From the NCBI RefSeq assembly GCF_003790525.1, contig NZ_CP033635.1: DNA of 64,000 nt; one strand, given 5' to 3'. The stretch comes from Escherichia coli (GTDB lineage Bacteria > Pseudomonadota > Gammaproteobacteria > Enterobacterales > Enterobacteriaceae). This document shows positions 1-61,469 of the stretch, in pieces. Position 1 is the stretch's first letter, and the number at the start of each line of letters is the position of its first letter. Made by a program: the position numbers and the translations under genes. Below the pieces are notes generated by a model. That model did not search any database, was not told where the DNA came from, and saw only the letters and a program-made list of their open reading frames with translations.

Positions 1-434
1 CCTCGTATGACGAACTCAGTACCATGCTCGACCAGCGACAGCAAACCCTGCTATTGCCAGAGAGCGCCGCCGACATCACCGTTCAGGGTGATGCAACCCT
101 GCTGCGGATGTTATTGCGAAACCTGGTAGAAAACGCCCATCGTTACAGCCCGCAAGGCAGCAACATTATGATTAAGCTGCAAGAAGATGGCGGAGCAGTC
201 ATGGCCGTTGAAGATGAAGGACCGGGTATTGATGAGAGTAAATGCGGGGAGTTGAGTAAAGCGTTTGTACGTATGGACAGCCGTTATGGCGGGATTGGTC
301 TGGGGTTAAGTATTGTCAGCCGCATTACACAGTTGCATCACGGGCAGTTTTTCCTGCAAAACCGGCAAGAGACTTCCGGCACGCGGGCCTGGGTACGGCT
401 GAAGAAAGATCAGTACGTGGTAAACCAGATATAA
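1..434 (+). CDS. basS: Sensor histidine kinase BasS/PmrB, C-terminal fragment (5' end lies outside window)
   Basis: ORF track 24..434, open in frame to window start; HATPase_c-type motifs ([25 protein letters not shown]); convergent with proP and overlapped by pmrR as in E. coli. Confidence 0.8.
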
Positions 435-499
435 AGAAAGCTGCTGACCACCAGCACGCTGAACACGGTAGTTAAACTTTCATAAACACGGTTTTTCAT
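410..499 (-). CDS. pmrR: Small membrane peptide PmrR (29 aa)
   Basis: Read by eye: ATG..TGA ORF translating [29 protein letters not shown] with GGAGGAGAG RBS just upstream; overlaps basS 3' end on the opposite strand; coordinates +/- 1-2 nt. Confidence 0.55.
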
Positions 500-569
500 T
501 GCACTCTCCTCCGTTAACCTGGAGGAGAGTATGCGCGTCAGAGATTAAGTGAACCTTAAGAGTTCAATT

Positions 570-6218: not shown

Positions 6219-6234
6219 TTGTATTGTGATCGGT

Positions 6235-6312
6235 AAGCCGGATAAGGCGCTCGCGCCGCATCCGGCAACGATGCCGACTGCCTGATGCGACGCTGACCGC
6301 GTCTTATCAGGC
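6235..6312. repeat. REP cluster between yjdM and yjdN
   Basis: GCCGGATAAGGCGC...GCATCCGGC and GCCTGATGCGACGCTG...TCTTATCAGGC palindromic units. Confidence 0.6.
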
Positions 6313-6377
6313 TTCCCTCTCATCTGTATAAATTTCGAACTACACTTAACTGGCTTCTCTTAACTGAGGTCACCATC

Positions 6378-6821
6378 ATGCCGTTAAGTCCCTACCTCTC
6401 TTTTGCCGGTAACTGTGCCGACGCAATTGCTTATTATCAACGTACGTTGGGCGCTGAACTGCTCTATAAAATCAGCTTCGGCGAAATGCCAAAATCAGCG
6501 CAGGATAGCGCCGAGAACTGCCCTTCCGGAATGCAATTTCCCGATACCGCCATCGCTCATGCCAACGTGCGCATTGCAGGAAGCGACATCATGATGAGCG
6601 ATGCTATACCGTCAGGAAAAGCCAGCTACTCCGGCTTTACGCTGGTGCTCGATTCGCAACAGGTCGAAGAAGGAAAACGCTGGTTTGACAACCTTGCCGC
6701 TAACGGAAAAATCGAAATGGCCTGGCAGGAAACTTTCTGGGCGCATGGCTTCGGCAAAGTCACCGATAAATTTGGCGTACCGTGGATGATTAATGTCGTC
6801 AAACAACAACCAACGCACTAA
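6378..6821 (+). CDS. yjdN: VOC/glyoxalase-family protein YjdN (PhnB), 147 aa
   Basis: ORF track 6378..6821; directly upstream of phnC. Confidence 0.9.
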   Translation: MPLSPYLSFAGNCADAIAYYQRTLGAELLYKISFGEMPKSAQDSAENCPSGMQFPDTAIAHANVRIAGSDIMMSDAIPSGKASYSGFTLVLDSQQVEEGKRWFDNLAANGKIEMAWQETFWAHGFGKVTDKFGVPWMINVVKQQPTH

Positions 6822-6845
6822 CCCGCCGGGAGGGCCGCCCTCCCG

Positions 6846-6915
6846 CACTGTCATCGAAATCTCGTTAACTCTTCATCCGTTAGTCACTTTTAGTTAACAA
6901 AATCGTCACAATAAT
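6846..6915 (+). promoter_or_regulatory. Pho-box array (PhoB sites) of the phnC promoter
   Basis: Run of 7-bp CTGTCAT-like half-sites at ~11-bp spacing (CTGTCAT, ATCTCGT, TCTTCAT, TAGTCAC, AGTTAAC, TCGTCAC) 40-110 bp upstream of phnC ATG. Confidence 0.5.
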
Positions 6916-6953
6916 CCGCCACGATGGAGCCACTTTTTTAGGGAGGCTGCATC

Positions 6954-7742
6954 ATGCAAACGATTATCCGTGTCGAGAAGCTCGCCAAAACCTTCAATCA
7001 GCATCAGGCGCTGCATGCGGTTGATCTGAACATTCATCACGGTGAAATGGTGGCTCTGCTTGGGCCGTCGGGTTCCGGCAAATCCACCCTTTTACGTCAC
7101 TTAAGCGGTTTGATTACCGGCGATAAATCTGCCGGTAGCCATATCGAGCTGCTGGGCCGCACAGTCCAGCGCGAAGGCCGCCTGGCCCGCGATATCCGCA
7201 AAAGCCGCGCCAACACCGGCTACATCTTCCAACAATTCAACCTGGTGAATCGCCTGAGCGTACTGGAGAACGTGCTGATTGGCGCGCTCGGCAGCACGCC
7301 GTTCTGGCGCACCTGTTTTAGCTGGTTCACCCGCGAGCAGAAACAGCGCGCGTTACAGGCGCTGACCCGCGTTGGCATGGTGCATTTTGCCCATCAGCGC
7401 GTTTCCACCCTCTCCGGCGGCCAGCAGCAGCGTGTGGCGATTGCCCGCGCGCTGATGCAGCAGGCGAAGGTGATTCTGGCCGATGAACCCATCGCCTCGC
7501 TGGACCCGGAATCGGCGCGCATCGTGATGGACACCCTGCGCGACATTAACCAGAACGACGGCATTACCGTGGTCGTCACGCTGCATCAGGTGGATTACGC
7601 CCTGCGCTACTGCGAACGCATCGTCGCCCTGCGCCAGGGGCACGTCTTCTACGACGGCAGCAGCCAACAGTTTGATAACGAACGTTTTGACCATCTCTAC
7701 CGCAGCATTAACCGCGTCGAAGAGAACGCGAAAGCTGCCTGA
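6954..7742 (+). CDS. phnC: Phosphonate ABC transporter ATP-binding protein PhnC
   Basis: ORF track; Walker [13 protein letters not shown] signature LSGGQQQR, Walker B ILADEP. Confidence 0.95.
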
Positions 7743-7766
7743 CATCCCCATCATTGAGGAAAACGA

Positions 7767-8783
7767 ATGAACGCTAAGATAATTGCCTCGCTGGCCTTCA
7801 CCAGCATGTTCAGCCTCAGCACCCTGTTAAGCCCGGCGCACGCCGAAGAGCAGGAAAAGGCGCTGAATTTCGGCATTATTTCAACGGAATCACAGCAAAA
7901 CCTGAAACCGCAATGGACGCCGTTCTTACAGGATATGGAGAAGAAGCTGGGCGTAAAGGTCAACGCCTTCTTTGCCCCGGACTACGCGGGCATTATCCAG
8001 GGGATGCGCTTCAATAAAGTGGATATCGCCTGGTACGGCAACCTGTCGGCGATGGAAGCGGTGGATCGCGCCAACGGTCAGGTCTTCGCCCAGACAGTCG
8101 CGGCGGATGGATCGCCAGGTTACTGGAGCGTGTTGATCGTCAACAAAGACAGCCCGATCAACAACCTGAACGATCTGCTGGCGAAGCGTAAAGATCTCAC
8201 CTTTGGCAATGGCGATCCTAACTCCACCTCTGGCTTCCTCGTCCCCGGTTACTACGTCTTTGCCAAAAACAATATCTCCGCCAGCGACTTCAAGCGCACC
8301 GTCAACGCCGGGCATGAAACCAATGCGCTGGCCGTCGCCAACAAGCAAGTGGATGTGGCGACCAACAATACCGAAAACCTCGACAAGCTGAAAACCTCCG
8401 CACCAGAGAAGCTCAAAGAACTGAAGGTGATCTGGAAATCGCCGCTGATCCCAGGCGATCCGATCGTCTGGCGCAAAAATCTTTCCGAAACTACCAAAGA
8501 CAAGATCTACGACTTCTTTATGAATTACGGCAAGACGCCGGAAGAGAAAGCGGTGCTGGAACGCCTGGGCTGGGCCCCGTTCCGCGCCTCCAGCGACCTG
8601 CAACTGGTGCCGATTCGCCAGCTCGCACTGTTTAAAGAGATGCAGGGCGTGAAAAGCAATAAAGGGCTGAATGAGCAGGACAAGCTGGCGAAAACCACCG
8701 CGATTCAGGCGCAGCTGGATGACCTGGACCGCCTGAACAACGCGTTAAGCGCGATGAGTTCGGTAAGTAAAGCGGTGCAGTAA
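7767..8783 (+). CDS. phnD: Phosphonate ABC transporter periplasmic binding protein PhnD
   Basis: ORF track; N-terminal signal peptide; operon position. Confidence 0.95.
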
Positions 8784-8847
8784 TGGTTTTCTCCCTCTCC
8801 CCGAAGGGGCGAGGGAACCGATCGAGCACACAATCACGGAGCCAAAC

Positions 8848-9627
8848 ATGCAAACCATCACCATCGCCCCACCCAAGCGCAGCTGGTTCTCGCTTCTGAG
8901 CTGGGCCATTGTTCTCGCCGTGTTGGTCGTCTCGTGGCAGGGCGCGGAAATGGCCCCGCTTACGCTGATCAAAGACGGCGGCAACATGGCGACGTTCGCT
9001 GCCGACTTCTTCCCGCCCGATTTCAGCCAGTGGCAGGATTACCTCACCGAAATGGCCGTCACGCTGCAAATCGCCGTCTGGGGCACCGCGCTGGCGGTGG
9101 TTCTCTCCATCCCCTTCGGTCTGATGAGCGCCGAAAACCTGGTGCCGTGGTGGGTTTACCAGCCCGTACGCCGCCTGATGGACGCCTGCCGCGCCATTAA
9201 CGAAATGGTCTTCGCCATGCTGTTCGTGGTCGCCGTCGGCCTTGGCCCGTTCGCTGGCGTGCTGGCGCTGTTTATCCACACCACCGGCGTGCTCTCCAAG
9301 CTGCTTTCCGAAGCGGTAGAAGCGATCGAACCCGGCCCGGTGGAGGGCATTCGCGCCACCGGTGCCAACAAGCTGGAAGAGATCCTCTACGGCGTGCTGC
9401 CACAGGTGATGCCGCTGCTGATCTCCTACTCCCTCTATCGTTTCGAATCCAACGTCCGCTCGGCGACCGTCGTCGGCATGGTCGGTGCAGGCGGGATCGG
9501 CGTCACCCTGTGGGAAGCGATTCGCGGTTTCCAGTTCCAGCAAACCTGCGCCCTGATGGTGCTGATTATCGTCACGGTCAGCCTGCTGGATTTCCTCTCT
9601 CAACGGTTGCGTAAGCACTTTATCTGA
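8848..9627 (+). CDS. phnE: Phosphonate ABC transporter permease PhnE (intact allele)
   Basis: Single uninterrupted 259-aa ORF in track; multi-TM permease; GGAG RBS upstream. Confidence 0.9.
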
Positions 9628-9647
9628 TAAGCGAGGCATTGATATCT

Positions 9648-10373
9648 ATGCACTTGTCTACACATCCGACCAGCTACCCAACACGCTATCAGGAGATAGC
9701 CGCAAAACTTGAGCAGGAGCTTCGTCAACACTACCGCTGCGGCGACTATCTTCCCGCCGAGCAGCAACTGGCGGCGCGCTTTGAGGTGAACCGCCACACC
9801 CTGCGCCGCGCCATCGACCAACTGGTGGAAAAAGGTTGGGTACAGCGCCGTCAGGGCGTCGGCGTGCTGGTGCTGATGCGCCCGTTCGATTACCCGCTCA
9901 ACGCCCAGGCGCGTTTTAGCCAGAACCTGCTGGACCAAGGCAGCCATCCCACCAGCGAAAAATTGCTATCGGTGCTGCGCCCCGCCTCCGGTCACGTCGC
10001 TGACGCATTGGGGATTACCGAGGGCGAGAACGTTATCCACCTGCGCACCCTGCGTCGGGTCAACGGCGTCGCGCTCTGTTTAATCGACCACTACTTTGCG
10101 GACCTCGCCCTCTGGCCGACGCTGCAACGCTTCGACAGCGGCTCGCTGCACGATTTTCTGCGCGAGCAAACCGGAATTGCGCTGCGCCGCAGCCAGACGC
10201 GGATCAGCGCCCGCCGCGCCCAGGCCAAAGAGTGCCAGCGTCTTGAAATCCCGAATATGTCGCCGCTGCTGTGCGTGCGCACCCTTAACCACCGTGACGG
10301 TGAAAGCAGCCCGGCGGAGTACTCCGTCAGCCTGACGCGCGCCGACATGATTGAATTCACTATGGAGCACTGA
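9648..10373 (+). CDS. phnF: GntR-family repressor PhnF, 241 aa
   Basis: ORF track 9639..10373 trimmed to MHLSTHPTSYP start; N-terminal wHTH, UTRA-like C-terminus. Confidence 0.9.
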   Translation: MHLSTHPTSYPTRYQEIAAKLEQELRQHYRCGDYLPAEQQLAARFEVNRHTLRRAIDQLVEKGWVQRRQGVGVLVLMRPFDYPLNAQARFSQNLLDQGSHPTSEKLLSVLRPASGHVADALGITEGENVIHLRTLRRVNGVALCLIDHYFADLALWPTLQRFDSGSLHDFLREQTGIALRRSQTRISARRAQAKECQRLEIPNMSPLLCVRTLNHRDGESSPAEYSVSLTRADMIEFTMEH

Positions 10374-10826
10374 ATGCACGCAGATACCGCGACCCGCCAG
10401 CACTGGATGTCCGTACTGGCGCACAGCCAACCGACTGAGCTGGCAGCCCGCCTGAACGCGCTGAACATCACCGCCGACTATGAAGTAATCCGCGCCGCTG
10501 AAACCGGCCTGGTGCAGATTCAGGCGCGGATGGGTGGCACCGGCGAACGCTTTTTTGCTGGCGACGCCACGCTCACCCGCGCCGCCGTACGCCTGACTGA
10601 CGGCACGCTCGGCTACAGCTGGGTGCTGGGGCGCGACAAACAGCACGCCGAACGCTGCGCGCTGATCGACGCGCTGATGCAGCAAACCCGCCATTTTCAA
10701 AACTTATCAGAAACTCTTATTGCCCCGCTGAACGCTGACCGTATGGCACGCATTGCCGCACGCCAGGCCGAAGTAAACGCCAGCCGGGTCGACTTCTTTA
10801 CGATGGTTCGCGGAGATAACGCATGA
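10374..10826 (+). CDS. phnG: C-P lyase core complex subunit PhnG
   Basis: ORF track, 150 aa; operon position. Confidence 0.93.
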
Positions 10827-11407
10827 CCCTGGAAACCGCTTTTATGCTTCCCGTGCAGGATGCCCAGCACAGTTTTCGTCGCCTGTTAAAGGCCATGAGC
10901 GAGCCGGGCGTGATTGTCGCCCTGCATCAGCTCAAACGCGGCTGGCAGCCGCTGAATATCGCCACCACCAGCGTGCTGCTGACGCTGGCCGATAACGACA
11001 CGCCGGTGTGGCTTTCTGCGCCATTAAGTAACGATATCGTCAGCCAGAGCCTGCGTTTTCATACCAACGCGCCGCTGGTCAATCAGCCGGAACTGGCGAC
11101 CTTCGCGGTAACGGATGAGGCGATTTCCAGCGAACAGCTTAACGCCCTTTCCAGCGGCACCGCTGTTGCGCCAGAAGCGGGCGCGACGCTGATTTTACAG
11201 GTCGTCAGCCTGAGCGGCGGGCGCATGCTGCGCCTTACTGGCGCGGGTATTGCCGAAGAACGAATGATCGCCCCGCAGCTGCCGGAGTGCATTCTGCACG
11301 AACTTACCGAGCGCCCGCACCCGTTCCCGCTCGGCATCGACCTGATCCTGACCTGCGGCGAGCGCCTGCTGGCTATCCCGCGAACCACTCATGTGGAGGT
11401 GTGCTGA
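10823..11407 (+). CDS. phnH: C-P lyase core complex subunit PhnH
   Basis: ORF track, 194 aa; 4-nt overlap with phnG stop. Confidence 0.93.
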
Positions 11408-12471
11408 TGTACGTTGCCGTGAAAGGGGGCGAGAAGGCGATCGACGCCGCCCACGCCCTGCAAGAGAGCCGACGCCGGGGCAATACCGATTTGCCTGAAC
11501 TGAGCGTCGCCCAGATTGAACAGCAGCTTAATCTTGCAGTAGATCGCGTGATGACCGAAGGCGGCATTGCCGACCGCGAACTGGCGGCGCTGGCGCTGAA
11601 ACAGGCCAGCGGCGATAACGTCGAAGCGATTTTCCTGCTACGCGCCTACCGCACCACGCTGGCGAAGCTTGCGGTGAGCGAGCCGCTCGACACCACGGAG
11701 ATGCGTCTCGAACGGCGTATTTCAGCGGTTTATAAAGATATTCCCGGCGGCCAGCTGCTTGGCCCAACCTACGACTACACCCATCGCCTGCTCGATTTCA
11801 CCCTGCTGGCAAACGGCGAAGCGCCGACGCTGACCACAGCCGACAGCGAACAACAGCCGTCGCCGCACGTTTTCAGCCTGCTGGCGCGTCAGGGGCTGGC
11901 GAAGTTTGAAGAAGATAGCGGCGCACAGCCGGACGACATCACCCGCACGCCGCCGGTTTACCCCTGCTCACGCTCCTCCCGCCTGCAACAATTAATGCGC
12001 GGCGACGAAGGCTATTTGCTGGCGCTGGCCTACTCCACCCAGCGTGGTTACGGACGCAATCATCCGTTCGCAGGCGAAATCCGCAGCGGCTATATCGACG
12101 TGTCGATTGTGCCGGAAGAGCTGGGATTTGCGGTGAACGTCGGCGAACTGCTGATGACCGAATGTGAAATGGTCAACGGTTTTATCGACCCGCCGGATGA
12201 GCCGCCGCACTTCACGCGCGGCTACGGGCTGGTGTTCGGCATGAGCGAGCGCAAAGCGATGGCGATGGCGCTGGTTGACCGCGCTCTACAAGCCCCGGAG
12301 TACGGCGAGCACGCGACAGGCCCGGCGCAGGATGAAGAGTTCGTGCTGGCGCATGCCGACAACGTCGAAGCCGCAGGCTTTGTCTCGCACCTTAAACTCC
12401 CGCACTACGTCGATTTCCAGGCCGAACTGGAGCTACTCAAACGTCTGCAACAGGAGCGGAACCATGGCTAA
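11407..12471 (+). CDS. phnI: C-P lyase core complex subunit PhnI, 354 aa
   Basis: ORF track 11287..12471 trimmed to [16 protein letters not shown] start overlapping phnH stop. Confidence 0.93.
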   Translation: MYVAVKGGEKAIDAAHALQESRRRGNTDLPELSVAQIEQQLNLAVDRVMTEGGIADRELAALALKQASGDNVEAIFLLRAYRTTLAKLAVSEPLDTTEMRLERRISAVYKDIPGGQLLGPTYDYTHRLLDFTLLANGEAPTLTTADSEQQPSPHVFSLLARQGLAKFEEDSGAQPDDITRTPPVYPCSRSSRLQQLMRGDEGYLLALAYSTQRGYGRNHPFAGEIRSGYIDVSIVPEELGFAVNVGELLMTECEMVNGFIDPPDEPPHFTRGYGLVFGMSERKAMAMALVDRALQAPEYGEHATGPAQDEEFVLAHADNVEAAGFVSHLKLPHYVDFQAELELLKRLQQERNHG

Positions 12472-13309
12472 TCTGAGCGGCTACAACTTTGCCTACCTCG
12501 ACGAGCAGACCAAACGCATGATCCGCCGCGCCATCTTAAAAGCGGTGGCGATCCCCGGTTATCAGGTGCCGTTTGGCGGGCGCGAGATGCCGATGCCGTA
12601 CGGCTGGGGAACTGGTGGTATCCAGCTTACCGCCAGCGTGATTGGCGAAAGCGACGTGTTGAAGGTGATTGACCAGGGTGCGGATGACACCACCAACGCG
12701 GTGTCGATCCGTAACTTCTTTAAGCGCGTGACCGGGGTAAACACCACTGAACGTACGGACGATGCGACGCTTATCCAGACGCGCCACCGCATCCCCGAAA
12801 CGCCGCTGACCGAAGATCAGATCATTATTTTCCAGGTGCCGATCCCCGAACCGCTGCGCTTTATCGAGCCGCGCGAAACGGAGACCCGCACCATGCACGC
12901 GCTGGAGGAGTACGGCGTGATGCAGGTGAAACTGTATGAAGATATCGCCCGCTTCGGTCATATCGCCACCACCTACGCCTATCCGGTGAAGGTAAACGGG
13001 CGCTACGTAATGGACCCGTCGCCGATCCCGAAATTCGATAACCCAAAAATGGACATGATGCCCGCCCTGCAACTGTTCGGCGCGGGGCGCGAGAAGCGCA
13101 TCTATGCGGTGCCGCCGTTTACCCGCGTGGAAAGCCTCGATTTCGACGATCACCCGTTCACCGTTCAGCAGTGGAATGAGCCATGCGCCATCTGCGGATC
13201 GACCCACAGCTATCTCGACGAAGTGGTACTGGATGACGCCGGAAACCGCATGTTTGTCTGCTCCGATACCAATTATTGCCGCCAACAGAGCGAGGCAAAA
13301 AACCAATGA
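12464..13309 (+). CDS. phnJ: Alpha-D-ribose 1-methylphosphonate 5-phosphate C-P lyase PhnJ, 281 aa
   Basis: ORF track 12275..13309 trimmed to MANLSGYNFAYLDEQ start; C-terminal Cys cluster (CAICGSTHSYLDE...CSDTNYC). Confidence 0.93.
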   Translation: MANLSGYNFAYLDEQTKRMIRRAILKAVAIPGYQVPFGGREMPMPYGWGTGGIQLTASVIGESDVLKVIDQGADDTTNAVSIRNFFKRVTGVNTTERTDDATLIQTRHRIPETPLTEDQIIIFQVPIPEPLRFIEPRETETRTMHALEEYGVMQVKLYEDIARFGHIATTYAYPVKVNGRYVMDPSPIPKFDNPKMDMMPALQLFGAGREKRIYAVPPFTRVESLDFDDHPFTVQQWNEPCAICGSTHSYLDEVVLDDAGNRMFVCSDTNYCRQQSEAKNQ

Positions 13310-14064
13310 ATCAACCGTTACTTTCGGTCAATAACCTGACCCACCTTTACGCGCCGGGCAAAGGCTTTAGCGATGTCTCTTTTGATTTATGGCCGGGGGA
13401 AGTGCTGGGCATCGTCGGGGAATCCGGCTCCGGGAAGACCACGCTGCTGAAGTCGATCTCCGCGCGCCTGACGCCGCAGCAGGGGGAGATTCGCTATGAA
13501 AACCGCTCCCTCTATGGCATGAGCGAAGCCGACCGCCGCCGTTTACTGCGCACCGAATGGGGCGTGGTACATCAGCATCCGCTCGACGGCCTGCGCCGCC
13601 AGGTATCGGCAGGCGGCAATATCGGCGAGCGGCTGATGGCGACCGGGGCGCGTCATTACGGCGACATCCGCGCCACCGCGCAGAAGTGGCTGGAAGAGGT
13701 GGAGATTCCCGCTAACCGGATCGACGACCTGCCGACCACCTTTTCCGGCGGCATGCAGCAGCGTTTGCAGATTGCCCGCAACCTGGTGACGCATCCGAAG
13801 CTGGTGTTTATGGACGAGCCAACCGGCGGGCTGGATGTGTCGGTGCAGGCGCGCCTGCTCGACCTGCTGCGCGGCCTGGTGGTGGAGCTGAACCTGGCGG
13901 TGGTGATTGTCACCCACGATTTAGGCGTCGCCCGCCTGCTGGCGGACCGTTTGCTGGTGATGAAGCAGGGGCAGGTGGTGGAGAGTGGGTTAACCGACCG
14001 CGTGCTCGACGACCCGCATCATCCGTATACCCAGCTGCTGGTGTCATCGGTTTTGCAGAATTGA
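13306..14064 (+). CDS. phnK: C-P lyase accessory ABC-type ATPase PhnK, 252 aa
   Basis: ORF track 13276..14064 trimmed to [11 protein letters not shown] start; Walker [10 protein letters not shown]. Confidence 0.93.
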
Positions 14065-14065
14065 G

Positions 14066-14158
14066 CCGGTGCCGGATGCGGCGTAAACGCCTTATCTGGC
14101 CTACAAATGCGCTCCCCGTAGGTCGGATAAGACGCGTCAGCGTCGCATCCGACACCCG
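14066..14158. repeat. REP cluster inside the phn operon, between phnK and phnL
   Basis: GCCGGATGCGGCGTAAACGCCTTATC... and GGTCGGATAAGACGCGTCAGCGTCGCATCCGAC units. Confidence 0.6.
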
Positions 14159-14174
14159 AACCACGAGGCGAAAA

Positions 14175-14855
14175 ATGATTAACGTACAAAACGTCAGTAA
14201 AACCTTCATCCTGCATCAGCAAAACGGCGTACGCCTGCCCGTCTTACAACGTGCCTCGCTCACCGTCAACGCAGGCGAATGCGTGGTGCTCCACGGTCAC
14301 TCCGGCAGCGGCAAATCAACCCTGCTGCGCTCGCTGTACGCCAACTATCTACCCGACGAAGGTCAAATCCAGATCAAACACGGTGACGAGTGGGTAGACC
14401 TGGTCACCGCGCCAGCGCGCAAAGTGGTGGAAATCCGCAAAACCACCGTCGGCTGGGTGAGCCAGTTTCTGCGCGTCATCCCGCGTATCTCAGCACTGGA
14501 AGTGGTGATGCAGCCGCTGCTCGATACCGGCGTTCCGCGTGAAGCCTGCGCCGCTAAAGCCGCGCGTCTTCTCACCCGCCTGAACGTGCCGGAACGCCTG
14601 TGGCACCTGGCACCATCGACATTTTCCGGTGGCGAACAGCAGCGCGTCAACATCGCCCGCGGCTTTATCGTCGACTACCCCATTCTGCTGCTTGACGAAC
14701 CTACCGCCTCGCTGGACGCCAAAAACAGCGCCGCGGTGGTGGAACTGATTCGCGAAGCCAAAACCCGTGGCGCAGCCATCGTAGGCATCTTCCATGACGA
14801 AGCTGTACGTAATGACGTCGCCGACCGCCTGCACCCAATGGGAGCCTCTTCATGA
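14175..14855 (+). CDS. phnL: C-P lyase accessory ABC-type ATPase PhnL, 226 aa
   Basis: ORF track 14061..14855 trimmed to [11 protein letters not shown] start; Walker [10 protein letters not shown]. Confidence 0.93.
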
Positions 14856-15988
14856 TTATCAATAACGTTAAGCTGGTGCTGGAAAACGAGGTGGTGCACG
14901 GTTCGCTGGAGGTGCAGGATGGCGAAATCCGCGCCTTTGCCGAAAGCCAGAGCCGCCTGCCAGAAGCGATGGATGGCGAAGGCGGCTGGCTGCTGCCGGG
15001 GCTGATTGAGCTGCATACCGATAATCTGGATAAATTCTTCACCCCGCGCCCGAAGGTTGACTGGCCCGCCCACTCGGCGATGAGTAGCCACGACGCGCTG
15101 ATGGTGGCGAGCGGCATCACCACCGTGCTGGACGCGGTGGCGATTGGCGACGTGCGCGACGGCGGCGATCGGCTGGAGAATCTGGAGAAGATGATCAACG
15201 CCATCGAAGAGACGCAGAAACGCGGCGTCAACCGCGCCGAGCACCGTCTGCATCTGCGCTGCGAACTGCCGCATCACACCACGCTGCCGCTGTTTGAAAA
15301 ACTGGTGCAGCGCGAACCGGTGACGCTGGTGTCGCTGATGGATCACTCGCCGGGCCAGCGCCAGTTCGCCAATCGCGAGAAGTATCGCGAATATTATCAG
15401 GGCAAATATTCCCTCACCGATGCGCAGATGCAGCAGTACGAAGAGGAACAGCTGGCGCTTGCCGCACGCTGGTCACAGCCTAATCGCGAAACTATCGCCG
15501 CAATGTGCCGCGCGCGACACATTGCCCTCGCCAGCCACGATGACGCCACGCACGCCCACGTTGCCGAATCCCACCAGCTTGGCAGCGTGATCGCCGAATT
15601 TCCCACCACGTTCGAAGCGGCAGAAGCCTCGCGCAAGCATGGCATGAACGTGCTGATGGGCGCGCCGAATATCGTGCGCGGCGGTTCGCACTCCGGCAAC
15701 GTGGCGGCCAGTGAACTGGCGCAGCTTGGCCTGCTGGATATCCTCTCTTCCGACTACTACCCCGCCAGCCTGCTCGATGCGGCATTTCGCGTCGCCGATG
15801 ACGAGAGCAACCGCTTTACGCTGCCGCAGGCGGTGAAGCTGGTGACTAAAAATCCGGCGCAGGCGCTTAATCTTCAGGATCGCGGGGTGATTGGCGAGGG
15901 CAAACGCGCCGACCTGGTGCTGGCGCATCGCAAGGGCAACCACATTCATATCGACCACGTCTGGCGTCAGGGTAAAAGGGTGTTCTGA
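14852..15988 (+). CDS. phnM: RPnTP diphosphatase PhnM (amidohydrolase fold), 378 aa
   Basis: ORF track; 4-nt overlap with phnL stop. Confidence 0.93.
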
Positions 15989-16545
15989 TGACGGGAAAAC
16001 TGATTTGGTTAATGGGGGCCTCTGGCTCCGGAAAAGACAGTCTGTTGACGGAACTCCGCCAGCGGGAACAAACTCAGCTACTGGTAGCGCATCGCTACAT
16101 CACGCGCGCCGCCAGCGCCGGAAGTGAAAACCATATCGCCCTGAGCGAGCAGGAGTTTTTTACCCGCGCGGGGCAGAACCTTCTGGCCTTAAGCTGGCAC
16201 GCTAACGGTCTGTATTATGGCGTCGGCGTCGAGATTGACCTCTGGCTGCACGCTGGATTTGACGTGGTGGTCAACGGCTCACGCGCCCATCTGCCGCAGG
16301 CGCGGGCGCGCTATCAATCGGCGCTGCTGCCCGTTTGTTTACAGGTTTCGCCAGAGATCCTGCGCCAGCGCCTGGAAAACCGTGGTCGTGAAAATGCCAG
16401 TGAAATTAACGCCCGGCTGGCGCGCGCTGCCCGCTATACTCCTCAGGATTGTCTTACGCTCAATAATGACGGCAGCCTGCGCCAGTCGGTCGACAAGCTG
16501 CTGACGCTGATTCATCAGAAGGAGAAACACCATGCCTGCTTGTGA
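15988..16545 (+). CDS. phnN: Ribose 1,5-bisphosphate phosphokinase PhnN, 185 aa
   Basis: ORF track; P-loop GASGSGKDS. Confidence 0.93.
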
Positions 16546-16966
16546 GCTTCGCCCGGCTACGCAGTACGACACCGACGCAGTTTACGCGCTGATTTGTGAG
16601 CTAAAACAGGCGGAGTTTGACCACCACGCGTTTCGCGTGGGGTTTAACGCCAATCTGCGCGATCCGAACATGCGCTACCATCTGGCGCTGCTGGATGGCG
16701 AAGTTGTCGGCATGATCGGCCTGCATTTGCAGTTTCATCTGCATCATGTCAACTGGATCGGCGAAATTCAGGAACTGGTGGTGATGCCGCAGGCGCGCGG
16801 TCTGAATGTCGGCAGCAAATTACTGGCATGGGCAGAAGAAGAAGCCCGCCAGGCCGGGGCCGAAATGACTGAGCTTTCCACCAACGTGAAGCGCCACGAC
16901 GCGCACCGTTTCTATCTGCGCGAAGGCTACGAGCAGAGCCACTTCCGCTTCACCAAGGCGCTGTAA
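16532..16966 (+). CDS. phnO: Aminoalkylphosphonate N-acetyltransferase PhnO (GNAT), 144 aa
   Basis: ORF track; GNAT fold; overlaps phnN 3' end. Confidence 0.93.
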
Positions 16967-16967
16967 C

Positions 16968-17726
16968 ATGAGCCTGACCCTCACGCTCACCGGCACCGGC
17001 GGCGCACAGGGCGTTCCGGCATGGGGCTGCGAGTGCGCGGCCTGCGCCAGAGCACGACGCTCGCCGCAGTATCGCCGCCAGCCATGCAGCGGCGTAGTAA
17101 AGTTTAACGACGCAATCACCCTGATCGACGCCGGGCTGCACGATCTCGCCGATCGCTGGTCGCCAGGATCGTTCCAGCAGTTTTTGCTGACGCATTATCA
17201 TATGGATCACGTCCAGGGGCTGTTTCCGCTGCGCTGGGGCGTGGGCGATCAGATCCCGGTCTACGGCCCGCCGGATGAACAGGGCTGCGACGATCTGTTT
17301 AAACATCCGGGCCTGCTTGATTTCAGCCACACGATGGAACCGTTTGTGGTGTTTGATTTACAAGGGTTACAGGTCACGCCCCTGCCGCTCAACCACTCAA
17401 AACTGACCTTCGGTTATCTGCTGGAAACGGCACACAGCCGGGTGGCGTGGCTGTCTGACACCGCTGGCTTGCCGGAAAAAACGCTGAAATTTTTACGCAA
17501 TAATCAGCCGCAGGTAATGGTGATTGATTGCAGCCACCCGCCGCGCGAGGATGCACCGCGTAATCACTGTGATTTAAATACCGTGCTTGCGCTGAATCAG
17601 GTTATCCGCTCGCCACGGGTGATTCTGACCCATATCAACCACCAGTTTGATGCGTGGCTGATGGAAAACGCACTGCCGTCGGGGTTTGAGGCGGGGTTTG
17701 ATGGGATGGAGATTGGGGTGGCGTGA
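16968..17726 (+). CDS. phnP: Phosphoribosyl 1,2-cyclic phosphate phosphodiesterase PhnP (MBL fold), 252 aa
   Basis: ORF track; metallo-beta-lactamase motif HYHMDH; last gene of phn operon. Confidence 0.93.
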
Positions 17727-22511: not shown

Positions 22512-23470
22512 AAAGCGAAGCGAGCGAGAAGAAACCGTTCAACTTTGCGCTGTTCTGGGATAAATACGGCACCTTTTTTATCCTGGCGATCATCGTCGCC
22601 ATCTTTGGTTCGCTGTCACCAGAATATTTTCTGACCACCAATAATATTACCCAGATTTTTGTGCAAAGCTCCGTGACGGTATTGATCGGCATGGGCGAGT
22701 TTTTCGCTATCCTGGTCGCTGGTATCGACCTCTCGGTTGGCGCGATTCTGGCGCTTTCCGGTATGGTGACCGCCAAACTGATGTTGGCAGGTGTTGACCC
22801 GTTTCTCGCGGCGCTGATTGGCGGTGTACTGGTTGGCGGCGCACTGGGGGCGATCAACGGCTGCCTGGTCAACTGGACGGGGCTACACCCATTTATTATC
22901 ACCCTTGGTACCAACGCCATTTTCCGTGGGATCACGCTGGTGATCTCCGATGCCAACTCGGTATACGGCTTCTCATTTGACTTCGTGAACTTCTTTGCCG
23001 CCAGCGTAATTGGGATACCTGTTCCCGTTATCTTCTCGCTAATTGTCGCGCTCATCCTTTGGTTTCTGACAACGCGTATGCGGCTCGGACTCAACATCTA
23101 CGCACTGGGCGGCAACAAAAACTCGGCGTTCTATTCCGGGATTGACGTGAAATTCCACATCCTGGTGGTGTTTATCATCTCCGGTGTTTGTGCAGGTCTG
23201 GCAGGCGTCGTCTCAACTGCACGACTCGGTGCCGCAGAACCGCTTGCCGGTATGGGTTTTGAAACCTATGCCATTGCCAGCGCCATCATTGGCGGCACCA
23301 GTTTCTTCGGCGGCAAGGGGCGCATTTTCTCTGTGGTGATTGGCGGGTTGATCATCGGCACCATCAACAACGGTCTGAATATTTTGCAGGTACAAACCTA
23401 TTACCAACTGGTGGTGATGGGCGGATTAATTATCGCGGCTGTCGCCCTTGACCGTCTTATCAGTAAGTAA
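22490..23470 (+). CDS. alsC: D-allose ABC transporter permease AlsC, 326 aa
   Basis: ORF track; multi-TM permease; overlaps alsA 3' end. Confidence 0.95.
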   Translation: MGFTTRVKSEASEKKPFNFALFWDKYGTFFILAIIVAIFGSLSPEYFLTTNNITQIFVQSSVTVLIGMGEFFAILVAGIDLSVGAILALSGMVTAKLMLAGVDPFLAALIGGVLVGGALGAINGCLVNWTGLHPFIITLGTNAIFRGITLVISDANSVYGFSFDFVNFFAASVIGIPVPVIFSLIVALILWFLTTRMRLGLNIYALGGNKNSAFYSGIDVKFHILVVFIISGVCAGLAGVVSTARLGAAEPLAGMGFETYAIASAIIGGTSFFGGKGRIFSVVIGGLIIGTINNGLNILQVQTYYQLVVMGGLIIAAVALDRLISK

Positions 23471-32592: not shown

Positions 32593-34740
32593 ATGAAAAA
32601 AGTCGTCACGGTTTGCCCCTATTGCGCATCAGGTTGCAAAATCAACCTGGTCGTCGATAACGGCAAAATCGTCCGGGCGGAGGCAGCGCAGGGGAAAACC
32701 AACCAGGGTACCCTGTGTCTGAAGGGTTATTATGGCTGGGACTTCATTAACGATACCCAGATCCTGACCCCGCGCCTGAAAACCCCCATGATCCGTCGCC
32801 AGCGTGGCGGCAAACTCGAACCTGTTTCCTGGGATGAGGCACTGAATTACGTTGCCGAGCGCCTGAGCGCCATCAAAGAGAAGTACGGTCCGGATGCCAT
32901 CCAGACGACCGGCTCCTCGCGTGGTACGGGTAACGAAACCAACTATGTAATGCAAAAATTTGCGCGCGCCGTTATTGGTACCAATAACGTTGACTGCTGC
33001 GCTCGTGTCTGACACGGCCCATCGGTTGCAGGTCTGCACCAATCGGTCGGTAATGGCGCAATGAGCAATGCTATTAACGAAATTGATAATACCGATTTAG
33101 TGTTCGTTTTCGGGTATAACCCGGCGGATTCCCACCCAATCGTGGCGAACCACGTAATTAACGCTAAACGTAACGGGGCGAAAATTATCGTCTGCGATCC
33201 GCGCAAAATTGAAACTGCGCGCATTGCTGACATGCACATTGCATTGAAAAACGGCTCGAACATCGCGCTGTTGAATGCGATGGGCCATGTCATTATTGAA
33301 GAAAATCTGTACGACAAAGCGTTCGTCGCTTCCCGTACAGAAGGCTTTGAAGAGTATCGTAAAATCGTTGAAGGCTACACGCCGGAGTCGGTTGAAGATA
33401 TCACCGGCGTCAGCGCCAGTGAGATTCGTCAGGCGGCACGGATGTATGCCCAGGCGAAAAGCGCCGCCATCCTGTGGGGCATGGGTGTAACCCAGTTCTA
33501 CCAGGGCGTGGAAACCGTGCGTTCTCTGACCAGCCTCGCGATGCTGACCGGTAACCTCGGTAAGCCACATGCGGGTGTAAACCCGGTTCGTGGTCAGAAC
33601 AACGTACAGGGTGCCTGCGATATGGGCGCGCTGCCGGATACGTATCCGGGATACCAGTACGTGAAAGATCCGGCTAACCGCGAGAAATTCGCCAAAGCCT
33701 GGGGCGTGGAAAGCCTGCCTGCTCATACCGGTTATCGCATCAGCGAGCTGCCGCACCGCGCAGCGCATGGTGAAGTGCGTGCCGCGTACATTATGGGCGA
33801 AGATCCGCTACAAACTGACGCGGAGCTGTCGGCAGTACGTAAAGCCTTTGAAGATCTGGAACTGGTCATCGTTCAGGACATCTTTATGACCAAAACCGCG
33901 TCGGCGGCGGATGTCATTTTACCGTCAACGTCATGGGGCGAGCATGAAGGCGTGTTTACTGCGGCTGACCGTGGCTTCCAGCGTTTCTTTAAAGCAGTTG
34001 AACCGAAATGGGATTTGAAAACGGACTGGCAAATCATCAGTGAAATCGCCACCCGTATGGGTTATCCGATGCACTACAACAACACCCAGGAGATCTGGGA
34101 TGAGTTGCGTCATCTGTGCCCGGATTTCTACGGTGCGACTTACGAGAAAATGGGCGAACTGGGCTTCATTCAGTGGCCTTGTCGCGATACTTCAGATGCC
34201 GATCAGGGGACTTCTTATCTGTTTAAAGAGAAGTTTGATACTCCGAACGGTCTGGCGCAGTTCTTCACCTGCGACTGGGTAGCGCCAATCGACAAACTCA
34301 CCGACGAGTATCCGATGGTACTGTCAACGGTGCGTGAAGTCGGTCACTACTCTTGCCGTTCGATGACCGGTAACTGTGCGGCACTGGCGGCGCTGGCTGA
34401 TGAACCTGGCTACGCACAAATCAATACCGAAGACGCCAAACGTCTGGGGATTGAAGATGAGGCATTGGTTTGGGTGCACTCGCGTAAAGGCAAAATTATC
34501 ACCCGTGCGCAGGTCAGCGATCGTCCGAACAAAGGGGCGATTTACATGACCTACCAGTGGTGGATTGGTGCCTGTAACGAGCTGGTTACCGAAAACTTAA
34601 GCCCGATTACGAAAACGCCGGAATACAAATACTGCGCCGTGCGCGTCGAGCCGATCGCCGATCAGCGCGCCGCCGAGCAGTATGTGATTGACGAGTACAA
34701 CAAGTTGAAAACTCGCCTGCGCGAAGCGGCACTGGCGTAA
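32593..34740 (+). CDS. fdhF: Formate dehydrogenase H (selenoprotein, molybdopterin enzyme), 715 aa with in-frame UGA at 33010-33012
   Basis: Track ORFs 32593..33012 and 33061..34740 are in the same frame, separated only by a TGA followed by a stem-loop (SECIS); N-terminal Fe-S motif CPYCASGC. Confidence 0.95.
33010..33055 (+). other. UGA selenocysteine codon plus bacterial SECIS stem-loop of fdhF
   Basis: In-frame TGA followed immediately by CACGGCCCATCGGTTGCAGGTCTGCACCAATCGGTCGG hairpin. Confidence 0.8.
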
Positions 34741-35523: not shown

Positions 35524-35680
35524 TGTAGGCCTGATAAGACGCGTTAATCGTCGCATCAGGCGTTGATGTCGGATGCGGCGTAAACGCCTTATCCGACCTA
35601 CAAAATCACGCTAAATCAGGCTATTGCGCTGTCTGACGTAGGCCTGATAAGACGCGGCAAGCGTCGCATCAGGCATCCAC
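35524..35680. repeat. BIME: at least three REP units between yjcO and gltP
   Basis: Alternating AGGCCTGATAAGACGCG...GCATCAGGC and CGGATGCGGCGTAAACGCCTTATCCGACC units. Confidence 0.65.
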
Positions 35681-37966: not shown

Positions 37967-38346
37967 CGCTTCGCCCTCACTCGCCAGAGGATCAGTGCCA
38001 TCAGCAGTAACAACACCACTGGCAGAGCCCACAATACCAGCGTCTGACCCGTTAACGGTGGGTTATAGCGAACAAAATCTCCGTAGCGTTCGGTCATCCA
38101 GCCAATGATTTCGACTTCACTTTTCCCCTCTTCCACCATGCTGTAAACCTGATGGCGCATACTGACCGCCACCGGCGCATTGGATTCCAGTAAGTTCTGA
38201 TTCTGACACTGCGGACAACGTAACTGGCTGGCAATATTTAACGCCTGTTGCTGTTGTTGCGGATTGGCGAATTGCCAGGTGTCTACGACCTGAGCACGCG
38301 CAAAACAGGTAAATAACAGCAGTAGCGTGAGAAGTCCTTTATTCAT
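37963..38346 (-). CDS. nrfF: Nrf heme lyase subunit NrfF (CcmH-like), 127 aa
   Basis: ORF track; CcmH-like LRCPQCQNQ motif. Confidence 0.92.
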
Positions 38347-38391
38347 CGCGCTTCCTCCCCCGCCATCCGCTTAACAATGCGCCCGCAATCA

Positions 38392-39996
38392 TCAACAATC
38401 CTCCCCCCAGATCCAGCGCACACCGCTTTGTACATACAAACGAAAAGCGTAACGATCCGGCCCAGTTTTCTCCCCCATGACCGCATACCAGTCATGGATG
38501 CCGTTCCAGCGAATTGACGGTTCCATCATTTGCTGACGGCGTGCTTCATAAAAACGCCGCTCCGGCGTCAGTTCACCAATACGTTGCTGATGGTCAAACA
38601 GTGCCACTATCGCTTTTTCGCTGGTGTAATTGCCTCTGGCTTGCAGATCGAGACGCTCAAAACGGAAGGCGTATCCTGCCAGCGTCACCTGCTGACCCGG
38701 CTGTAAATTCAGGCTGATCTCCTGACGGCTGACGCTGGAGACCACGATCCCTGCGGCAAATAACAGCACGCCCGCATGCGCCAGCAGCGCCGGAAGCTGC
38801 ACGCGTTTGCCAGAGACAAACGTCGCCAGCACAATCACCACCAGCATCAACAGACCAAACGGTAACGTCGCACGGTTAAAATACGGCGCGCCAACGGAGA
38901 GGCGTCCCCAGCCCAGCAGGCCGTAAATCATCGGATAAAGCGTTCCCACCAGCACGATCAGTAGCACTGCGCAAAACAGCAACAGCGTAGCGAGGATTAA
39001 CATTTCCCGCGATAACCCCGAAAAACGCACCGCCGGGCCACCGTCCCGCGCTCGCCAGCCATACAGAGTCAGAGACGCAAGGCTAATCAGTGCAAACAGG
39101 CTGAACAACGGCACGGCGCGAACGTTATCCAGCGCGAACGCATGAACCGAAACCAGAATGCCAGAACGGACAATTAAGGTGCCCAGCAGCGACAGCATCA
39201 GAGTAACTATCGCCAGTAACAGCGACCAGTGGCGGAAAATCCCCCGCTGGCGTGTCAGGGACAAACTGTGCAGCAGCGCAGTGGCAGAAAGCCAGGGTAA
39301 TAAAGAGGCGTTTTCCACCGGATCCCAGAACCACCAGCCGCCCCAGCCCAGTTCGCAATAGGCCCACCAGGAACCGAGGATGATCCCCGCCGTTAATGCC
39401 CCCCAGCCTGGTAGTGCCCAGCGCCAGCAAATTCGGGCGCAGGTACCATCAAACTCGCCGCGCAGTAAACTCGCCAGCGCCACGCTCGCCGCCACCATCA
39501 AACCGCCGTAGCCGAGATAAAGCAGCGGTGGATGAAAGATAAGACCGGGATGTTGCAGCATCGGATTGAGATCGCGGCCTTCGATTGCTGGCGGAAATAT
39601 CCGCACGAAGGGATCGGACCACAGCACTACAAACAGTAGCAGTGCGGCGAGCATGAGAGATAAAACGGCTAGCGTCAGCGGAAATAGCGGATCGGTTTGC
39701 TGCCGATAATGCCAGGCAAACAGCGCGCTCCAGGCGGAAAGCAGCAGCACCCAAAGCAGCAGCGAACCTTCATGACCGCCCCACACCGCCGCCAGTTTGA
39801 GTTCCCACGACAGCAGGCTGTAGCTATGTTGGGCGACATAAATGACCGAGAAATCGCTGATGAGAAAACAATACGTCAGTACGCCAAAGGCGAGCAGCAG
39901 GAGCGCGAACTGCGCCAGAATGCCGATGCAAGTGAGTCGCATCATGGCAGGCCAGCGCAACCGCACTCCCGCAAAGGCCGTCAACGGGGTCAACAC
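38392..39996 (-). CDS. nrfE: Nrf heme lyase NrfE (CcmF-like), apparently C-terminally truncated by a frameshift; possible pseudogene or sequence error
   Basis: Track ORF 38392..40020 (TTG-called start) trimmed to in-frame GTG; WGGHEGSLLLW CcmF-type motif; ORF ends ...VRWIWGEDC while the expected hydrophobic C-terminus is encoded downstream in another frame. Confidence 0.75.
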   Translation of the reverse strand: MLTPLTAFAGVRLRWPAMMRLTCIGILAQFALLLLAFGVLTYCFLISDFSVIYVAQHSYSLLSWELKLAAVWGGHEGSLLLWVLLLSAWSALFAWHYRQQTDPLFPLTLAVLSLMLAALLLFVVLWSDPFVRIFPPAIEGRDLNPMLQHPGLIFHPPLLYLGYGGLMVAASVALASLLRGEFDGTCARICWRWALPGWGALTAGIILGSWWAYCELGWGGWWFWDPVENASLLPWLSATALLHSLSLTRQRGIFRHWSLLLAIVTLMLSLLGTLIVRSGILVSVHAFALDNVRAVPLFSLFALISLASLTLYGWRARDGGPAVRFSGLSREMLILATLLLFCAVLLIVLVGTLYPMIYGLLGWGRLSVGAPYFNRATLPFGLLMLVVIVLATFVSGKRVQLPALLAHAGVLLFAAGIVVSSVSRQEISLNLQPGQQVTLAGYAFRFERLDLQARGNYTSEKAIVALFDHQQRIGELTPERRFYEARRQQMMEPSIRWNGIHDWYAVMGEKTGPDRYAFRLYVQSGVRWIWGEDC

Positions 39997-40075
39997 GTTG
40001 ACCCCGAGACTTAACAACAACGCCAGAAAACCGACTTCAGGAAGGAATACGTCCAGAAACCACCTCTGTTCTGGC

Positions 40076-46099: not shown

Positions 46100-46222
46100 A
46101 CAATTGCCGGATGCGATCCGGGCAACAAGTCGGAAACGATTTGTAGGCCTGATAAGACGCGACAGCGTCGCATCAGGCATTGATTGCCGGATGCGGCATA
46201 TAACGCCTTATCCAGCCTACAT
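46100..46222. repeat. REP cluster between acs and yjcH
   Basis: TGCCGGATGCGATCCGGGCA, AGGCCTGATAAGACGCGACAGCGTCGCATCAGGC and TGCCGGATGCGGCATATAACGCCTTATCC units. Confidence 0.65.
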
Positions 46223-51899: not shown

Positions 51900-52052
51900 T
51901 ACAATTAAAGCATCAACACCAACCGGAACCTCCACCACGTGCTCGAATGAGGTGTGTTGACGTCGGGGGAAACCCTCCTGTGTACCAGCGGGATAGAGAG
52001 AAAGACAAAGACCGGAAAACAAACTAAAGCGCCCTTGTGGCGCTTTAGTTTT
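51900..52052 (+). ncRNA. ryjA: Candidate small RNA RyjA convergent with soxR, ending at shared hairpin terminator
   Basis: K-12 has sRNA RyjA between soxR and ghxP; here a GC hairpin plus T-run (~52025-52052) reads as a terminator on the + strand; a TACAAT -10-like element near 51900; boundaries approximate. Confidence 0.3.
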
Positions 52053-60965: not shown

Positions 60966-61469
60966 ATGAATATATCATATGTGAATAGCAACAAAATGAC
61001 ATCTTTACCTGTTGAGCTAGATGCACTAAATAATAAAGATATCTCTTATTCCAAAGATTTTTCTTATGCCAGAGATTTCTTTTTATATATAGAAACACAG
61101 TTAAAAATTGCAAAAGATTTTTGTAGACCTGGAGAAGAAGTATCAAGTTCTATTGCAAGTACAGTTTTTCATGCATTTATTGATTTAGTTAACAAAATCA
61201 GAGGCAAGAAAGATTGTATGTATATTTGCACACTTTGCTGTTTTGCCGAGGAGGTTAAAGGTGATTATTCTCATTACAGGACCTTTTTATTTGATATTGG
61301 TAATCAATATAAGGTTAAACTTACACAAAGCGGAAAAAAAGAGTTCTCTTTAACATTAGAATTTAACGATACTATAATTGAATCTCAGAAAGTCACAGGC
61401 AATAAGGCAAAGCATATTCTTGAGGATATAGAAATATTCTATCGTAACAAACCCGATACTTATTATTAA
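60966..61469 (+). CDS. Hypothetical protein (~167 aa) in AT-rich islet, function unknown
   Basis: Track ORF 60927..61469 (180 aa); internal ATG at 60966 is preceded by GAAGGAG at RBS spacing; long stop-free frame in very AT-rich DNA; no recognisable motif; 6 Cys. Confidence 0.45.
   Translation: MNISYVNSNKMTSLPVELDALNNKDISYSKDFSYARDFFLYIETQLKIAKDFCRPGEEVSSSIASTVFHAFIDLVNKIRGKKDCMYICTLCCFAEEVKGDYSHYRTFLFDIGNQYKVKLTQSGKKEFSLTLEFNDTIIESQKVTGNKAKHILEDIEIFYRNKPDTYY

Follow-up and report, generated by a model that had tools for sequence, protein, structure and literature searches.

An intact two-unit phnE within a complete phn operon on an SMS-3-5-like Escherichia coli chromosome

The stretch of Escherichia coli DNA analysed here, 64,000 nucleotides in length (the window), carries the 14 genes phnC to phnP at positions 6954-17726, all on the plus strand and in the canonical order. 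Every reading frame opens with ATG, closes with a stop codon and is free of internal stops, the gene lengths equal those in K-12 and in the B derivative, and the RefSeq annotation places a pseudogene flag on none of them. The membrane permease of the phosphonate ABC importer is encoded by phnE (8848-9627). Both the mechanical listing of open reading frames and direct reading of the sequence gave one ORF of 259 amino acids running from ATG to TGA, as the preliminary description had claimed, and its 780 nucleotides are 100% identical to phnE of strain SMS-3-5 (NC_010498.1), where PGAP annotates an intact CDS (WP_001193496.1). A 335-residue antisense ORF (8632-9639, minus strand) extends across the whole of phnE; we set it aside as a mechanical by-product of coding-strand composition, which is without annotation support and lies inside a well-supported gene.

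Two genes adjoin phnE upstream on the same strand, and the products of both scored above their equivalog cut-offs. The importer ATP-binding subunit is specified by phnC (6954-7742), an intact CDS of 262 codons whose product differs from that of K-12 at three residues and matches NF007438 over positions 1-262 of 262 (608 bits, cut-off 365). The periplasmic phosphonate-binding protein PhnD (7767-8783; 338 residues) scored 376 bits with TIGR03431 (cut-off 261), and its accession, WP_000992000.1, is found in the B derivative as well. Downstream of phnE lies phnF (9648-10373), with its start as in RefSeq, which encodes the GntR-family operon repressor of 241 residues (NF007486, 518 bits against 363).

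The C-P lyase genes follow. Core components are encoded by phnG (10374-10826; 150 residues; TIGR03293, 180 bits against 89) and phnH (10823-11407; 194 residues; TIGR03292, 201 bits against 91.5), the ribose 1-methylphosphonate 5-triphosphate synthase subunit by phnI (11407-12471; 354 residues; annotated in RefSeq; PF05861, 515 bits over positions 1-347 of 348) and the radical-SAM C-P bond-cleaving enzyme by phnJ (12464-13309; 281 residues; PF06007, 501 bits). Two ABC-type ATPase-like C-P lyase components are specified by phnK (13306-14064; 252 residues; TIGR02323, 410 bits against 303) and phnL (14175-14855; 226 residues; TIGR02324, 369 bits against 256), the profile of the latter starting at the annotated ATG. 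The remaining genes are phnM for the RPnTP diphosphatase (14852-15988; 378 residues; NF011981, 810 bits against 375), phnN for ribose 1,5-bisphosphokinase (15988-16545; 185 residues; NF007485, 354 bits against 153), phnO for aminoalkylphosphonate N-acetyltransferase (16532-16966; 144 residues; NF007530, 315 bits against 142), whose product is the same as in K-12, and phnP for phosphoribosyl cyclic phosphodiesterase (16968-17726; 252 residues; TIGR03307, 427 bits against 272).

NCBIfam equivalog cut-offs were thus passed by 12 of the 14 proteins (PhnC, D, E, F, G, H, K, L, M, N, O and P). The NCBIfam search gave no match for PhnI and PhnJ, both of which match Pfam; since both are 99% identical to their K-12 counterparts, we read this blank as a missing model and not as divergence. 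PhnJ retains G32, C241, C244, C266 and C272, which we take to be the glycyl-radical, cluster and thiyl residues described by Kamat et al. The frames, lengths and family models together bear out the earlier claim that all 14 phn genes are full length and the operon complete. Across the operon, 48 of 3,516 residues differ from K-12 (98.6% identity), and a Nei-Gojobori count against K-12 gave 315 synonymous and 52 non-synonymous differences, with a dS of 0.135, a dN of 0.0065 and a dN/dS of 0.048. Judged by this ratio, the phn operon is under strong purifying selection.

The preliminary description had also spoken of tight translational coupling throughout the operon. This holds at nine of the 13 junctions (F-G, G-H, H-I, I-J, J-K, L-M, M-N, N-O and O-P), where neighbouring genes overlap by 1-14 nucleotides or are separated by 0-1 nucleotide, but not at phnC-D (24 nucleotides), phnD-E (64), phnE-F (20) and phnK-L (110), where gaps of 20-110 nucleotides intervene. 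As the gapped layout is likewise seen in K-12, the correction is one of wording and does not point to a defect. The 64-nucleotide phnD-phnE spacer (8784-8847) contains a GC-rich hairpin at 8791-8818, CTCCCTCTCCCCGAAGGGGCGAGGGAAC, with an RNA folding energy of -23.5 kcal/mol (z = -2.2). In K-12 and B the corresponding spacer is 105 nucleotides long, contains a REP element and is non-homologous to that of the window, with only about the last 11 nucleotides before the phnE start common to all three. The 110-nucleotide phnK-phnL spacer (14065-14174) holds REP-like palindromic units, and K-12 and B have a gap of equal length here. Upstream of the operon, the yjdM-yjdN spacer (6219-6377) measures 159 nucleotides, as against 657 in K-12 and 557 in the B derivative, and has an Rfam match to the REP-derived naRNA4 at 6236-6313.

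At the protein level, PhnE scored 311.3 bits with the TIGR01097 equivalog model (cut-off 216.7; E = 4.5e-93), its residues 16-258 aligning to profile positions 8-251 of 252. The Pfam domain PF00528 (BPD_transp_1) spans residues 88-258 with 91.8 bits, and includes the C-terminal half that is lost through the K-12 frameshift. In its score, its near-full coverage of the profile and its phnC and phnD neighbours, phnE matches the PhnE permease family, with no notable difference. We compared the protein with a frame-repaired K-12 PhnE and with PhnE from the B-derived strain NEBExpress, and found a single residue that differs, isoleucine 21 here being valine in both. No conserved PhnE segment is missing, given the near-full profile, a length equal to that of the B-derived PhnE and 258 of 259 residues identical to it.

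Within phnE, two tandem 8-bp units, GCTGGCGT GCTGGCGC, occupy positions 9253-9268 and provide codons for residues 136-141 (AGVLAL), corresponding to the in-frame 'ON' state of a slippage tract. The sequence around 9253 reads TTC GCT GGC GTG CTG GCG CTG TTT, and the third copy is absent, exactly as first described. Alignment with phnE of K-12 MG1655 showed a single length difference, an 8-bp gap at this tract, K-12 having three units; the two genes are 96.7% identical, gap included. The K-12 gene is 788 bp long and is flagged by PGAP as 'pseudogene' and 'frameshifted', and its unrepaired translation reads ...PFAGVLAC before passing, after residue 140, into out-of-frame sequence with stops. The PGAP flag and the alignment thus agree with the earlier statement that the K-12 pseudogene arises from an extra 8-bp unit. 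With two units the frame stays open and PhnE keeps its C-terminal half, including the stretch from residue 155, downstream of the repeat residues 136-141, which we take to be the EAA-type loop of ABC permeases. The three units of K-12 throw translation out of frame after residue 140, and the permease is lost.

The likeness to the K-12 MG1655 phnE pseudogene, whose operon is cryptic (phnE_1/phnE_2), therefore extends to the gene, the locus and the flanking genes; the K-12 allele carries a third GCTGGCGT unit, shifting its frame after residue 140, which the window phnE is without. Once one unit is removed from the K-12 sequence, 18 nucleotide differences and one amino-acid difference separate the two. 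A third GCTGGCGT unit was sought in the window tract and was not present, which places the window outside the K-12-type cryptic allele class, and the locus is, as had been claimed, not MG1655-like (two units against three).

Deletion of GCTGGCGT at ORF position 407-414 restores the reading frame in K-12 and activates PhnCDE (Stasi et al., 2019; PMC6469041); the window tract starts at ORF position 406, the site of the deletion described there. The tract state in the window is that of K-12 Phn+ revertants such as RI57, in which one GCTGGCGT has been lost, two are left, the frame is open and PhnCDE is active (PMC6469041). However, these revertants are laboratory derivatives of a three-unit ancestor, whereas the window allele lies on a divergent natural haplotype with no sign of an earlier third unit. 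A natural counterpart is phnE of E. coli B (through the NEBExpress locus, L003; BL21-Gold), which shares the 259-residue length, the two units and the position in the operon. B differs from the window by synonymous SNPs, by three substitutions in the pho-box region and in the phnD-phnE spacer. In alignment with both strains, K-12 has one extra 8-bp unit and the B-derived PhnE one different residue. Makino 1991 and Iqbal 2004 are said to have found E. coli B naturally Phn+. The identity of 258 of 259 residues with the B-derived PhnE, together with the activity of two-unit K-12 revertants (PMC6469041), suggests that the PhnE of the window transports phosphonates.

NC_010498.1, a published chromosome that PGAP has annotated, carries the window in reverse-complement orientation, window position w corresponding to record position 4677567 - w. 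Base-by-base comparison over all 64,000 positions showed three differences from RefSeq SMS-3-5, none of them in phnE. Position 7178 is C in the window and T in RefSeq, a synonymous change in codon Gly75 of phnC; position 23091 is T in the window and G in RefSeq, so that Arg201 of AlsC becomes Leu in the window. The third difference, at 38409, lies in nrfE (minus strand, about 38339-40056), where a run of six C stands in the window against seven in RefSeq SMS-3-5; towards the 3' end of nrfE the shorter run causes a frameshift, and the window product ends in ...WIWGEDC* in place of the RefSeq ending. The shorter run occurs in six of 5,421 records, and since the strains that share it are unrelated, homopolymer slippage or a sequencing error is suggested at this position.

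Short tandem repeats and homopolymers are error-prone, and the 1-nucleotide difference in homopolymer length at 38409 could raise the suspicion that the open phnE frame is likewise an artefact of assembly or sequencing and the true number of units a different one. We consider this extremely improbable, because phnE is identical in an independent RefSeq record, about 4,400 genomes, obtained with many different sequencing platforms, share the two-unit state, and miscalls do not typically take the form of an 8-bp unit.

We surveyed the tract in complete E. coli genomes using a 129-nucleotide K-12 segment that spans the three units. Among the 5,394 records matched, 1,009 were at least 95% identical (three units), while the remainder showed identities of about 89-94%, as expected for an 8-bp gap, with spans of 121 nucleotides. 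A 44-nucleotide query that seeds only on at least three units matched 1,012 of 5,426 genomes; in 998 of these the match covered at least 80% of the query. Fewer than three units are thus present in about 81% of complete E. coli genomes, and as this is the majority state, two units are to be expected and are not notable. The window phnE, already annotated by PGAP and of the majority form, offers nothing new as an allele. Plasmids, not chromosomes, carried five of the phnE matches. In about 30 of the 5,426 genomes phnE was not matched at all.

Alleles with at least three units are not confined to laboratory K-12. According to host and source labels, about two thirds of a 60-row spread sample of genomes with such alleles came from other sources (humans, chickens, pigs, cattle, pets, deer, seawater and wastewater), with genomes of up to 5.4 Mb. 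PGAP labels phnE 'frameshifted' in a broiler isolate and in a dog isolate, and the tract of the pig-farm isolate YZ22PE244 comprises four units, its phnE being frameshifted too. Related phnE tracts lie at 10406-10429 in our locus L002 and at about 654-685 in loci L005, L006 and L007. Iqbal et al. 2004 reportedly concluded that the OFF form was peculiar to K-12; if so, the present survey widens the picture. The K-12 frameshift is shared by about one in five complete E. coli genomes, a group that includes many clinical or animal isolates, and this is relevant when phosphorus metabolism or PhnCDE-dependent phenotypes are deduced from sequence.

These natural tracts of two, three and four units bear on the reading that the two-unit tract is the majority state of a reversible slip-strand switch, with a culture mixing ON (two-unit) and OFF (three-unit) cells. 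Iqbal 2004 is said to have seen the phnE unit re-inserted after selection was removed, which would count for such a switch. K-12, moreover, readily reverts from three units to two by slippage under selection, as stated in PMC6469041, which cites Makino 1991, Iqbal 2004 and Guillemet 2012. Two units, however, form the minimal substrate for slippage, and the distribution of the longer alleles argues against frequent switching. A 3.69-kb K-12 query extending from phnD to phnH was at least 99% identical to 1,032 records, a number with which the 1,012 genomes bearing alleles of at least three units nearly coincide. All 11 sampled top rows spanned 3,690 nucleotides (three units) at an identity of at least 99.9%, the first two-unit row appeared at 99.3%, and every row outside the K-12-like haplotype in a 60-row spread sample had the shorter, two-unit span. 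No OFF allele was seen on other haplotypes in the sampled rows. Its presence on one K-12-like haplotype fits a single origin followed by stable inheritance, and the coincidence of the longer alleles with that haplotype suggests that a change from ON to OFF has rarely, if ever, become fixed on other backgrounds. We therefore regard a mixed culture as very improbable; it would in any case be compatible with an ordinary functional phnE and would add heterogeneity only.

A broader possibility, to which we give little weight, is that the 8-bp tract serves in E. coli as a natural contingency or lineage switch and is not a laboratory oddity of K-12. If the OFF state were actively maintained in the successful K-12-like lineage, for instance through harmful import by PhnCDE or through its cost, while lineages like SMS-3-5 stay ON, this would amount to divergent selection among E. 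coli lineages on phosphonate and phosphate uptake by PhnCDE.

Expression of the operon would depend on the phnC promoter, in which a putative PhoB-binding (pho box) region lies at 6877-6910 on the plus strand, as located by alignment to K-12 and B. A PhoB motif instance identified at K-12 phnC by ChIP-seq, ATTAACCAAATCGTCACA (Fitzgerald et al.; PMC10294691, Table 1), aligns with the 18 nucleotides at 6893-6910, and its window counterpart is GTTAACAAAATCGTCACA, the TTAAC and GTCAC core hexamers being unchanged. Seven positions differ from K-12 and B over 6800-6960, an interval that extends from within the end of yjdN as far as the phnC start; its last 61 nucleotides, Shine-Dalgarno region and ATG among them, are the same in the window, K-12 and B. 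Three of the seven differences fall within 6877-6910, where the window reads CCGTTAGTCACTTTTAGTTAACAAAATCGTCACA and K-12 CTGTTAGTCACTTTTAATTAACCAAATCGTCACA; one affects a position that was already off consensus, and another raises the A content of the spacer. A literature text search with the pho-box string CTGTTAGTCAC returned, among the matches listed, only unrelated papers on cancer and Wnt/beta-catenin.

In K-12 the dependence of phnC on PhoB is about 2,500-fold, with 32,470 reads in the wild type against 13 in the delta-phoB strain, and between species the sites for PhoB at phnC show poor conservation (PMC10294691). Among the pho promoters tested, that of phnC has the lowest affinity and is induced latest (PMC4447250). 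These properties, taken with the three substitutions relative to K-12 and B, leave room for the reading that the operon is complete on paper and yet Phn-, through the lineage-specific pho-box changes or through one of the 48 missense differences. We judge this improbable, though less so than a mixed culture. The substitutions miss the core hexamers, and since a 111-nucleotide query around the pho box found 393 complete-genome records at least 99% identical, we consider the haplotype to be a polymorphism of the lineage rather than a private lesion. The low dN/dS and the 14 open frames argue that selection for function persists, and the catalytic glycine and cysteine residues of PhnJ are kept. 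A promoter disabled by the substitutions is unlikely, given the intact core hexamers and the commonness of the haplotype, and we retain it only within this low-probability alternative. As the phnC promoter is already the weakest in PhoB affinity, there is a small chance that induction is altered quantitatively. In the SMS-3-5 genome phoB and phoR are intact, according to the RefSeq record, and lie outside the window; they count towards the Phn+ prediction, but as facts carried over from a record that differs from the window at three positions in 64 kb.

Taken together, 8848-9627 is very probably an ordinary wild-type phnE in a complete phn operon, on a chromosome that is essentially that of SMS-3-5, and it is reasonable to predict from the sequence that the strain is Phn+. 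A literature search for the phosphonate phenotype of SMS-3-5 found none. Under phosphate limitation, PhoB~P would activate the phnC promoter and the phn operon would be transcribed, phnC, phnD and phnE serving transport, phnF repression, phnGHIJKLM the C-P lyase pathway and phnNOP accessory functions. PhnCDE would then import alkyl- and aminoalkyl-phosphonates, from which the C-P lyase pathway would free phosphate, giving the predicted Phn+ phenotype. PhnCDE also imports phosphate (PMC6469041). In metabolic models for this strain, phosphonate uptake and C-P lyase should be present, in contrast to those taken over from K-12 MG1655. MG1655 is an atypical reference at the phn locus, and the finding matters little beyond correct annotation.

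Elsewhere in the window, the interval between tyrB and aphA contains a small pseudogene (60967-61189; record positions 4616378-4616600) that RefSeq labels a frameshifted 'hypothetical protein'. Rfam matches above the gathering score were the STnc630 sRNA (403-568, minus strand), the SraL sRNA (51912-52052, plus strand) and the SECIS element in fdhF (33005-33059, plus strand). Further naRNA4/REP-type elements were detected at 35528-35598 and 46146-46217, both on the minus strand, and all five of these matches are expected for this region of the E. coli chromosome.
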